Shown here piece after piece: positions 39,863-41,525 of a stretch of DNA of 64,000 bases (the stretch's first letter is position 1; every line of letters begins with the position of its first letter). The notes under the pieces were generated by a model. That model did no database searches, had not been told where the DNA came from, and saw nothing but the letters and a program-made list of their open reading frames with translations. Source of the DNA: an uncultured delta proteobacterium (GTDB taxonomy: Bacteria; Desulfobacterota; Binatia; UBA9968); assembly GCA_963727625.1 (NCBI GenBank), contig CAVSHR010000001.1:1-64000 (forward strand). The letters run 5' to 3'. The position numbers and the translations under genes are program-made.

Positions 39863-40000
39863 TCAAAGCATGCGGTAGTTGCGGACGGAGAAATATATCA
39901 ACGCCCCCACGGCCAGCACCGATAAAATCGGGTGGTTCAACGCCCAACCCAGCGCCGGCTCAAAGATATTATTAAGGATGTAGTCGACGAACCTACCCAT
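39863..40000 (-). CDS. 45-aa single-TM small membrane protein
   Basis: Below track cutoff. RBS GGGAGA, then MGRFVDYILNNIFEPALGWALNHPILSVLAVGALIYFSVRNYRML. Confidence 0.6.
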   Translation of the reverse strand: MGRFVDYILNNIFEPALGWALNHPILSVLAVGALIYFSVRNYRML

Positions 40001-40447
40001 GGGTTCTCCCTATTCGCGCGCGGTGATTAACGCCATTTATAACAAAAGCAACTTCTGGTTCAACGAGCAAGATTGGCAGCGAGATTGCGCTGCTCCGTTT
40101 CTTTTCGTTGCAATCTTTCATTCGAGGTTAAGCGTTGACATCGCCGTCGTTGATCGCTCCGACTCCAAGGGGCGCGGCGCGCTGAGAACCCCAACGCTTC
40201 CTTCGGCTTCCTGCGCGGCGTTGCGCAACATGATCCAAAGCAAAATCGCTTCGAGATCGTCCGACGCGCAATTGGTCAGACTATAGCATTTTGAGTAAGC
40301 TTTCAGAAGTTTATTGTACAATCTTGCTCTTTTCCGGCCAAAGCTGTCCCGAAGAGATCCTCAAAGAAGCATTGCATCGACCGAAGAATTTAAGCAAGCA
40401 AGCGAAAAAACAAGCGGTTTTTCACAACGAGAGATCATTCGACCGTT

Positions 40448-40463
40448 TGGCACCGGCGTTGCT
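40448..40463 (+). promoter_or_regulatory. sigma54 (-24/-12) promoter
   Basis: TGGCAC-CGGCG-TTGCT is an exact TGGCAC-N5-TTGCW consensus about 40 nt upstream of ATG 40502. Confidence 0.7.
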
Positions 40464-40501
40464 CTATCTACGGAACATCAATGCCACCGGAGGAGTGATC
40501 G

Positions 40502-40651
40502 ATGAAACTACTGCTCGCCACGATGTTCAAGAAAGTGCCAGTGCGAACGACCAAACAGAGGGTCACACTCTGTAAGCGCTGCGGCACGCGCATCTACTCG
40601 TTGAGCTATCTCAAAGCCCATCTCGAAGCCCACGATAAAAAGAATCTTTAA
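40502..40651 (+). CDS. 49-aa protein with a classical C2H2 zinc finger
   Basis: RBS GGAGGAG (40489-40495), then MKLLLATMFKKVPVRTTKQRVTLCKRCGTRIYSLSYLKAHLEAHDKKNL, containing C-x2-C-x12-H-x3-H. Confidence 0.7.
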   Translation: MKLLLATMFKKVPVRTTKQRVTLCKRCGTRIYSLSYLKAHLEAHDKKNL

Positions 40652-40682: not shown

Positions 40683-40829
40683 ATGAATTTTTCGCTAATC
40701 TCTTGGAACGAGTTCCGTGAAGCTTTGAAACAACGGCAATCCAGCAATCTTCAACTCTGGCTGCGCCGCTGGAAGTTTACAAACGAAGGGGTCATTCTCG
40801 CCGACCCTCGCATCGCAGGCACGAGTTGA
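40683..40829 (+). CDS. 48-aa hypothetical small protein
   Basis: TAAGGA upstream. MNFSLISWNEFREALKQRQSSNLQLWLRRWKFTNEGVILADPRIAGTS. Confidence 0.35.
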   Translation: MNFSLISWNEFREALKQRQSSNLQLWLRRWKFTNEGVILADPRIAGTS

Positions 40830-40912: not shown

Positions 40913-41149
40913 ATGCATCGGCTCCAAACAAATTCTGGCCAGGACGTCCCGCGCGCGATCAATCAGCGCTGTAATCACAAGCTGGCCCTTTTGATCGATC
41001 CCACGGATCGTGAACTGCATGAACTGGAACAAATGCTGGCAAGCTGCCCCAACTGCAGCCGCTGGATGCCGGGCGACGGACCGATCATGGCGGTTGTCAT
41101 GAGTCGTGGGAAGAACGCCGGCAACGAGGTGCCCCATGAGCTGGTCTAG
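40913..41149 (+). CDS. Hypothetical small Cys/His protein
   Basis: CNH...CPNC motifs; no clear RBS. Confidence 0.35.
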   Translation: MHRLQTNSGQDVPRAINQRCNHKLALLIDPTDRELHELEQMLASCPNCSRWMPGDGPIMAVVMSRGKNAGNEVPHELV

Positions 41150-41255: not shown

Positions 41256-41525
41256 ATGGAAGCCGTAAAAATCATCATGCCCGCCGCCGAACGAAAACCC
41301 TGCGTGTGCGGCGCCACCCTTTATGTCAGCCGTGGATCGACCGACAAACGCAAAGCCGAAGTATGGCTCTGCTCGCGCCACTGCGGCGCACGCGGCCTGA
41401 GCTACGAAGGCGCGCTGCGGCGCAAAGTACGCTTGGACTTGCTGAGTTGGGGCGACCTGCGCCGCAACGCCCGGGCGCTCATCGCCGCCCACGCGGACGA
41501 TGACGACACTCGCCTGTTACAGTGA
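41256..41525 (+). CDS. Hypothetical zinc-ribbon-like protein, 89 aa
   Basis: PCVCG...WLCSRHCG motifs; GC-rich coding-like sequence. Confidence 0.5.
   Translation: MEAVKIIMPAAERKPCVCGATLYVSRGSTDKRKAEVWLCSRHCGARGLSYEGALRRKVRLDLLSWGDLRRNARALIAAHADDDDTRLLQ

Follow-up and report, generated by a model that had tools for sequence, protein, structure and literature searches.

The classical C2H2 zinc finger is the hallmark DNA-binding module of eukaryotes. In bacteria, a single Cys2His2 site is found in Ros, where the basic flanks are important for DNA binding, and the Ros/MucR finger differs from the classical C2H2 finger in spacing and in fold (PMC9779718). Stand-alone zinc-finger proteins of fewer than 70 amino acids (aa) with regulatory or stress phenotypes have been reported from Haloferax volcanii (PMC6562870, PMC11241148, PMC10716476), and a zinc-binding protein of Helicobacter pylori, FlgZ (HP0958), is functionally linked to RpoN (PMC3372290). 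Here we set beside these systems g1, a gene for a 49-aa basic micro-protein with a single C2H2 finger, located at 40502-40651 on the plus strand of a stretch of 64,000 nucleotides (nt) from an uncultured delta proteobacterium of the Binatia (contig CAVSHR010000001.1, positions 1 to 64,000); the window hereafter means this whole stretch. A sequence-only reading of the window had described g1 as a complete sigma-54-driven unit for a stand-alone regulator with one classically spaced finger, apparently undescribed, and had named as checks a search for homologues with conserved Cys and His residues and a conserved promoter box, the presence of rpoN, a Pfam zf-C2H2 scan and an AlphaFold model.

The g1 open reading frame (ORF) runs from an ATG at 40502 to a TAA stop codon at 40649-40651 and is preceded on the same strand by the ribosome-binding site GGAGGAG (40490-40496), which ends 5 nt before the start codon; ribosome-binding site, finger and basic arm can all be read directly from the sequence and the ORF list, as the sequence-only reading had done. 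The putative zinc ligands are Cys24, Cys27, His40 and His44 in the arrangement C-x2-C-x3-I-x5-L-x2-H-x3-H, the core hydrophobics are Ile31/Tyr32 and Leu37, and the Lys/Arg-rich arm lies N-terminal to the finger. A six-frame search of 40 relatives recovered stop-free orthologues with 73-96% identity in 18 of the 24 genomes of the same genus (a count that takes in G005, a genome flagged as unpublished), and returned matches at chance level only (E >= 0.1) in the 16 genomes from different genera of the order. Scanning public metagenome-assembled genomes (MAGs), with one genome per GTDB species, yielded 31 g1 loci, in assemblies mostly titled "Candidatus Binatia bacterium", "Deltaproteobacteria bacterium" or "uncultured delta proteobacterium". 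When the same-genus set, the public MAG set and the window are merged for overlaps, 34 distinct loci are obtained: the product has 49 aa in 32 of them and 50 and 51 aa in the remaining two, and a purine-rich word resembling a ribosome-binding site lies 4-16 nt upstream of the ATG in 31.

Across 18 aligned orthologues, 23 of the 49 columns are invariant, including the four Cys and His ligands and seven arm residues (F9, K11, P13, V14, T17, Q19 and R20), so homologues with conserved Cys and His do exist. Variable columns number 25, 19 and 46 of 49 at codon positions 1, 2 and 3, respectively, and nonsynonymous difference is low relative to synonymous difference (pN 0.128 against pS 0.718, pN/pS 0.18, 153 pairs), which indicates purifying selection. 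In a set of 5.8 billion proteins g1 falls into 98 clusters at 90% identity, most of them called at 49 aa as "hypothetical protein" and with no recorded Pfam domain; gene callers in other public assemblies do annotate the g1 orthologue, under the same uninformative name. GC content across the locus (0.47-0.63, compared with 0.55-0.58 for the contigs) shows no clear anomaly, and horizontal transfer as judged by composition was set aside. Six of the 24 genus genomes gave no g1 match, and four of these (G002, G021, G022 and G023) were searched for LigB, a gene of the divergently oriented neighbouring operon. In G002 and G021 the LigB contig stops within the LigB-g1 intergenic region, and in G022 and G023 no LigB match was found at E 1e-40; the other two genomes, G001 and G010, are 60-65% complete. 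Because of these contig ends, missing LigB matches and low completeness, the six genomes do not establish real absence of the gene. Judged from sequence comparison, g1 is a real, conserved gene under selection.

Upstream of g1 on the plus strand lies the sigma-54-type (-24/-12) promoter TGGCAC-CGGCG-TTGCT (40448-40463), an exact box that the sequence-only reading had placed correctly; with the C at 40462 (GC element) taken as -12, the usual sigma-54 geometry predicts a transcription start at 40474. The pattern TGGCACN5TTGCW has one match in the window against 0.07 expected, with at least one match in 7 of 100 shuffles, and 17 matches in the entire 6.62-Mb genome. On their own such counts are only suggestive, and it is conservation that decides: TGGCA[CT]-N5-TTGCT stands 48-54 nt before the ATG in all 31 public MAG loci and in 33 of the 34 distinct loci, and the letters T,G,G,C,A and T,T,G,C,T are fixed across loci while spacer and flanks vary. 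The sole exception is G008, in which g1 starts 149 nt from the contig start. The LigB contig of the same genome carries the usual intergenic blocks and TGGCAT-N5-TTGCT followed by unrelated sequence; probably an insertion separates promoter and g1 here, or the assembly is broken between them. Contigs end inside the LigB-g1 intergenic region in three same-genus assemblies, L095 (G002), L096 (G021) and L097/L024 (G008), and this spot may hold a repeat or insertion that breaks assemblies.

The corresponding machinery is encoded in the genome, which comprises 15 contigs and is 98% complete by marker genes. Searching the whole genome revealed one rpoN, seen as a single PF04552 (Sigma54_DBD) match with E 3.7e-62 in a 522-aa open frame, and 35 PF00158 (Sigma54_activat) matches, of which 27 are full-length, stop-free bacterial enhancer-binding proteins (bEBPs) with E <= 6.8e-65; none of these bEBPs lies on the window's contig. 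Since rpoN and 27 bEBPs are present and the -24/-12 box is conserved, g1 is, by its sequence features, a genuine expression unit of the sigma-54 type, and its transcription in vivo is probably sigma-54-dependent. The rpoN gene and the conserved box had both been anticipated by the sequence-only reading. Other exact sigma-54 boxes in genome G000 precede ORFs that start with signal-peptide-like hydrophobic stretches; they lie at C4:1108498 (+), C6:331093 (-), C12:449423 (-) and C12:407146 (-), where minus-strand offsets are counted on the reverse-complemented contig.

In order to characterise the finger, we modelled g1 with AlphaFold2 using a 114-sequence family alignment. The model has strands at residues 22-23 and 30-31 and a helix at 34-48, the beta-beta-alpha arrangement that the sequence-only reading had named as a check, with a mean predicted local distance difference test (pLDDT) score of 75, and 84/83/79 over the finger (residues 21-49). 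A Foldseek search of the PDB gave no match at E <= 0.001, as is expected for about 30 residues, and its top rows are nearly all classical C2H2 fingers (ZNF484, ZNF512, CLAMP, SUPERMAN 1njq, CTCF and BCL11A), with SUPERMAN 1njq superposing at a root-mean-square deviation of 0.8 Å over 25 residues. C2H2 or C2HC fingers likewise account for most of the best 50 rows in VIA-align. On the sequence side, the family profile matches human HKR3/TZAP fingers (E 6.2e-5 and 2.4e-4) and Miz-1 (1.5e-3) in the PDB, and among 1.84 billion representatives it reaches multi-finger proteins, one of which (P0219), checked in Pfam, contains 37 zf-C2H2 stretches. A language-model look-up of a g1 orthologue returned small "C2H2 domain-containing" clusters, some of them archaeal, which we take as a lead only.

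Furthermore, conservation of the finger extends well beyond the g1 orthologues. C24, C27, G28, L37, H40 and H44 are fixed in the 114 family sequences, and I31 and Y32, invariant in the orthologues, are [IVM][YFW] family-wide. The finger C24-x2-C27-x12-H40-x3-H44, invariant in the 18 orthologues, thus has the classical 12-residue spacer first noted in the sequence-only reading; of the further marks of a classical C2H2 finger, the hydrophobic core is present, the beta-beta-alpha fold is present in the model, and the Pfam score lies under the threshold. No Pfam, NCBIfam or PHROGs model scored above its cut-off for g1, for its paralogues or for the downstream ORFs g2-g4 described below. On this basis g1 is predicted to fold as one classical-type beta-beta-alpha C2H2 finger, and it would bind one zinc ion.

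Rather than being the only copy of its kind, g1 belongs to one of three paralogous single-finger subfamilies within a larger family. The same genome carries two g1 paralogues, of 69 aa and 66-70 aa, which share the core C-x2-C-G-x3-[YF]-x4-L-x2-H-x3-H and a conserved amphipathic C-terminal helix. The C9 paralogue has an exact TGGCAC-N5-TTGCT box 54 nt upstream, and the C5 paralogue has the box TGGTAT-N5-TTGCT. We surveyed 22 paralogue genes, these two and 20 from same-genus genomes, drawn from about 45 weaker matches at the paralogue level: with a strict pattern, 17 have a sigma-54 box, and inspection by eye of the other five finds GG-N10-GC variants (TTGCG or ATGC) or a box masked by the choice of start codon. 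Nearly all examined paralogue copies therefore appear to sit behind a sigma-54-type box. The subfamilies differ in charge. The 49-aa branch has an isoelectric point (pI) of 10.7, a net charge of +10 and an N-terminal arm of +6; the corresponding values are 6.3, -1 and -3 for the 66-aa branch and 10.3, +8 and +1 for the 69-aa branch. The 49-aa branch lacks the C-terminal helix of the longer paralogues and carries the conserved +6 arm.

A profile of the three subfamilies collects 455 clusters, mostly of 66 or 69 aa, unnamed or misnamed, and an exhaustive family search at E <= 0.001 retrieved 201 of the 1.84 billion representatives, including distant 59-75-aa single-finger proteins of the same architecture; the distant members that we looked up are unnamed metagenome records throughout. 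The family was found in none of the 300 other genomes drawn evenly across the phylum, with no more than 20 candidates scored in each genome by a first-look filter. Many of the 66/69-aa members among the database proteins P0002-P0120 are named 'ribosomal protein S27AE', 'ribosomal protein L34E' or 'uncharacterized OB-fold protein', names that look like automatic transfers from the CxxC knuckle. In NCBIfam, the S27ae model scores far under its cut-off.

Some members of the family occur in settings of their own. At C9:256000-271500 of G000 (L094), the 69-aa paralogue follows two E1-alpha/E1-beta pairs of the 2-oxoacid or acetoin dehydrogenase type and is separated by 4-6 kb, which hold a sulfotransferase, a cupin and an FAD/BBE oxidase, from two sigma-54 activators of the GAF(-PAS)-AAA+ type, one of them with an HTH_8 match. 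Adjacency as a rule for finding the cognate bEBP was rejected, as neither g1 nor the C9-type copies of G004, G008, G014, G017 and G018 have an activator close by. In two near-identical metagenome loci (L092 and L093, about 1365-1690), a distant member of about 60 aa (CxxCGGK...H...H), without a sigma-54 box, lies between a small holin-like membrane ORF and another ORF bearing a T4-lysozyme-like motif. This setting looks like a prophage lysis cassette; PHROGs and a viral-contig scan gave no phage support.

Upstream, g1 shares its intergenic region with a divergent operon. The first gene of this operon is a conserved 45-aa membrane-type ORF (39863-40000, minus strand, identified by tblastn) with one hydrophobic helix and the end ...RNYRML, present in 28 of the 31 public loci and in the window at 311-813 nt from the g1 ATG, and not mentioned in the sequence-only reading. 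It is followed by a LigB-type extradiol dioxygenase, a LigA-like ORF and a short-chain dehydrogenase (SDR), assigned by LigB, LigA and SDR Pfam matches. Of 31 loci, 28 keep g1 and the LigB operon divergent, and the downstream side varies. A consensus scan identified a sigma-70-like promoter for the divergent operon, TTGGCC-17-TACAAT, on the minus strand at 40313-40341. A k-mer search showed that a block around TTGTACAA recurs in most loci, at -155 to -191 relative to the g1 ATG, and two conserved upstream blocks near 40313-40341 coincide with this promoter. The TTGTACAA block was considered as an activator site for g1 and rejected: it overlaps TTGGCC-17-TACAAT, and elsewhere in the genome it stands, loosely, beside just one other sigma-54-like box. 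In our reading, therefore, the conserved blocks mark the putative promoter of the divergent operon instead of a site for an activator. We likewise rejected control of the LigB operon by a sigma-54 promoter, as no minus-strand box recurs, with matches of 1-2 mismatches scattered over 5 of 28 regions.

The same region was said in the sequence-only reading to contain an IHF-like site at 40408-40420, and this claim found no statistical support. The string AAACAAGCGGTTT has two mismatches to the IHF consensus WATCAANNNNTTR, and the window contains 407 matches as good as this against 389 expected, which is chance level. What recurs instead is an A-tract/T-tract inverted repeat at 40404-40423 that includes AAACAAGCGGTTT; 12 of 28 intergenic regions have an A/T inverted repeat in the corresponding place, compared with 0.29 in shuffles and 5 of 119 other windows. 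Rfam gave no match between 39700 and 42000 at E up to 1.

Downstream, g1 proved not to be the isolated unit first described: it appears to head an operon of small ORFs whose composition varies. On the plus strand it is followed by g2 (40683-40829; 48 aa, Trp-rich, helical and without Cys), g3 (40913-41149; 78 aa, with C-x-H ... C-x2-C) and g4 (41256-41525; 89 aa, with C-x-C ... C-x3-C and a conserved basic helix region), at gaps of 31, 83 and 106 nt, and no terminator-like site was found on this strand between the genes from g1 to g4. These ORFs are present in 17, 19 and 14 of 32 loci, respectively, and all three are missing in eight of the 32, one of which has just 490 nt downstream. Each is under purifying selection weaker than that on g1, with pN, pS and pN/pS of 0.264, 0.695 and 0.38 for g2, 0.272, 0.682 and 0.40 for g3 (4 sequences) and 0.221, 0.608 and 0.36 for g4. 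None of the three belongs to a Pfam or NCBIfam family, and g4 has 254 database clusters in which every name shown is 'hypothetical protein'. Within the genus, g3 and g4 each occur in 13 of 24 genomes, always on the g1 contig beside g1 and nowhere else; a split g4 and a g3 with a stop codon were each seen once. Because g2-g4 come and go among loci while the promoter and g1 are constant, the comparison marks promoter and g1 as the invariant unit and the downstream genes as accessory. The 2-kb "empty" intergenic stretch thus holds at least five conserved small genes that were not displayed in the ORF track of the sequence-only reading.

These observations can be assembled into a proposed function. 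RNA polymerase carrying sigma-54 would transcribe g1 from the 40448-40463 promoter, which would need an ATP-dependent enhancer-binding activator answering some signal, and transcription would probably continue into up to three further small ORFs (g2-g4), depending on the species. The translated product would be a very basic 49-residue protein with one C2H2 finger behind a conserved basic arm, and finger and arm together may bind nucleic acid in the manner of domains that combine a single finger with a basic region, such as that of GAGA factor. A plausible target would be the intergenic region held in common with the divergent LigB operon, or RNA. We propose nucleic-acid binding because the 49-aa branch is extremely basic and its arm is as conserved as the finger, and the shared intergenic region is a reasonable candidate because the divergent arrangement is conserved. 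We would rate the chance that g1 binds nucleic acid as somewhat short of even.

Several results weigh against this proposal. Classical DNA-binding fingers contact the bases from set positions of the helix. In g1 these positions are occupied by Ser33, Ser35, Tyr/Phe36 and Ala/Lys/Val39, and in the 66-aa paralogues by Pro, Glu, Leu and Ala, so the g1 helix, as read from its residues, does not look like that of a canonical DNA-reading finger. The acidic-to-neutral character of the 66-aa subfamily (pI 6.3) means that nucleic-acid binding is not a common property of the family. Scored alone in Pfam, g1 reaches 15.9 bits for zf-C2H2 (E 0.019, cut-off 25.2) and 17.7 bits for zf-C2HE (E 0.0048, cut-off 30.1), so that the zf-C2H2 scan put forward in the sequence-only reading fell short, and the top row in VIA-align is 3wup, a ubiquitin-binding (UBZ) finger, tied with C2H2 fingers. 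On the regulatory side, a cognate bEBP and an upstream activator site for g1 were looked for and none was identified, and in five relatives the nearest bEBP lies 34-90 kb away or on another contig. Moreover, synteny inside one genus may simply reflect shared descent.

The main alternative, a serious one though less likely, is that g1 is a protein-binding module, UBZ-like or another C2H2 finger that does not bind DNA, serving as a small adaptor for, or modulator of, another protein, such as part of the sigma-54/bEBP machinery, an enzyme encoded nearby or a g2-g4 product. Sub-threshold zf_UBZ (PF18439) matches speak for it, with E 0.00047 for P0312, 0.023 for P0259 and 0.029 for the C5 paralogue; relatives score 13.3-20.2 bits against a cut-off of 25.6, and g1 itself has no match at E up to 1. 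The helix surface without typical base-contact residues, the acidic 66-aa subfamily and the amphipathic C-terminal helix conserved in the longer paralogues point in the same direction, and a sigma-54-type box before nearly all examined paralogues would fit feedback on that machinery. However, loss of the C-terminal helix and gain of the conserved +6 arm in the 49-aa branch point to nucleic acid, and no partner was identified; dependence of g1 on g2-g4 is excluded by the 8 of 32 loci that lack all three.

We consider it improbable that g1, g3 and g4 form a metal- or stress-response cluster, in which small Cys/His proteins induced through sigma-54 would bind or buffer zinc or another metal, or protect targets. 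The loose analogy here is zraP of E. coli, which is sigma-54-dependent, and the idea draws on the four-ligand Cys/His motifs in three of the four operon products, on the sigma-54 control and on the three finger paralogues per genome. One metal site per 49-89 residues would nevertheless make a poor buffer, the high conservation of non-ligand residues, including the whole basic arm, suggests a specific macromolecular partner, and no metal transporter or sensor was found nearby among the ORFs examined. Quite improbable, too, is a ribosome- or RNA-associated micro-protein, either a translation modulator or a small basic zinc protein of the S27ae or L40e kind: the scores that favour it lie far under their thresholds and derive from the CxxC knuckle alone, the family occurs in 1 of 301 genomes of the phylum-wide draw, unlike a ribosomal component, and sigma-54 control argues against a housekeeping role. 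That g1 is a chance ORF behind a chance promoter match, as the one exact box in 7 of 100 shuffles might allow, is almost certainly wrong, being already contradicted by the comparative data, with the reading frame and its codon-position pattern kept at pN/pS 0.18, the box kept in 33 of 34 loci and the protein in 98 database clusters.

We searched the literature on bacterial C2H2 proteins, small zinc-finger proteins, RpoN and Binatota and found no published description of the g1 family; apart from unrelated work, what came back was Ros/MucR, FlgZ and the Haloferax micro-proteins. Nor is the family covered by a Pfam, NCBIfam or PHROG model, and the suggestion that it is undescribed therefore stands. 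Among the genomes searched, the family is found in one uncultured lineage of soil bacteria only. If zinc binding and a target were shown, g1 would provide a natural C2H2 domain of 49 residues whose independent folding could be tested, a new class of output genes in the sigma-54 regulon and a data point in the debate on the origin of the eukaryotic finger. A bolder and unlikely reading of the same observations is that the Binatia hold an autonomous bacterial lineage of beta-beta-alpha C2H2 fingers with classical spacing, acting as free-standing sigma-54-induced micro-regulators. The 49-aa form would then bind the intergenic DNA between it and the LigB ring-cleavage operon, or the mRNA of that operon, with one finger and a basic arm in a GAGA-like manner, and the ancestor of the eukaryotic finger would have in this family a counterpart among prokaryotes, perhaps even a relative. 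If true, it would be an alternative to the Ros-derived origin of the finger proposed in the literature.

When g1 is compared with the systems named at the outset, each shares some of its traits. FlgZ is a larger C4 zinc-ribbon protein (DUF164) that stabilises RpoN, and we found no sequence or fold similarity between it and g1; a link between g1 and RpoN beyond the promoter would be speculation. The C(P)XCG proteins of Haloferax belong to another domain of life and are mostly C4 with two C(P)XCG motifs. Look-alikes of a g1 orthologue in the ESM Atlas include 62-65-aa archaeal clusters with zf-C2H2 or zf-met, where the sequence link is a lead only. To our knowledge, archaea lack sigma-54 and bacteria lack ubiquitin. 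In the UBZ family of Y-family polymerases (PF18439), the matched 31-residue chain has no counterpart to the strongly basic arm of g1. Ros/MucR and g1 are both bacterial with a single Cys2His2 site. With its 12-residue spacer and 49 aa, however, g1 falls outside the Ros/MucR definition (PMC9779718), and ROS_MUCR is not among the Pfam matches of g1 at E up to 1, in agreement with the sequence-only reading, which had set g1 apart from this type.

The closest likeness is to the classical C2H2 finger (PF00096, with GAGA factor and SUPERMAN among its single-finger proteins), which has the spacing, the two hydrophobic positions and the predicted beta-beta-alpha fold in common with g1 and supplies the best structural and profile matches of g1 and its family, all of them weak. 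In contrast to classical C2H2 proteins, g1 is bacterial, free-standing, 49 aa long, preceded by a sigma-54-type promoter and under the Pfam gathering score, with Ser/Ser/Tyr/Ala at the base-contact positions and Ile/Tyr in place of the usual Phe. The fold class and the promoter class are each textbook, and it is their combination that is new: a bacterial, free-standing finger of classical spacing in a lineage-specific family of three paralogues, nearly all examined copies of which have a sigma-54-type box.

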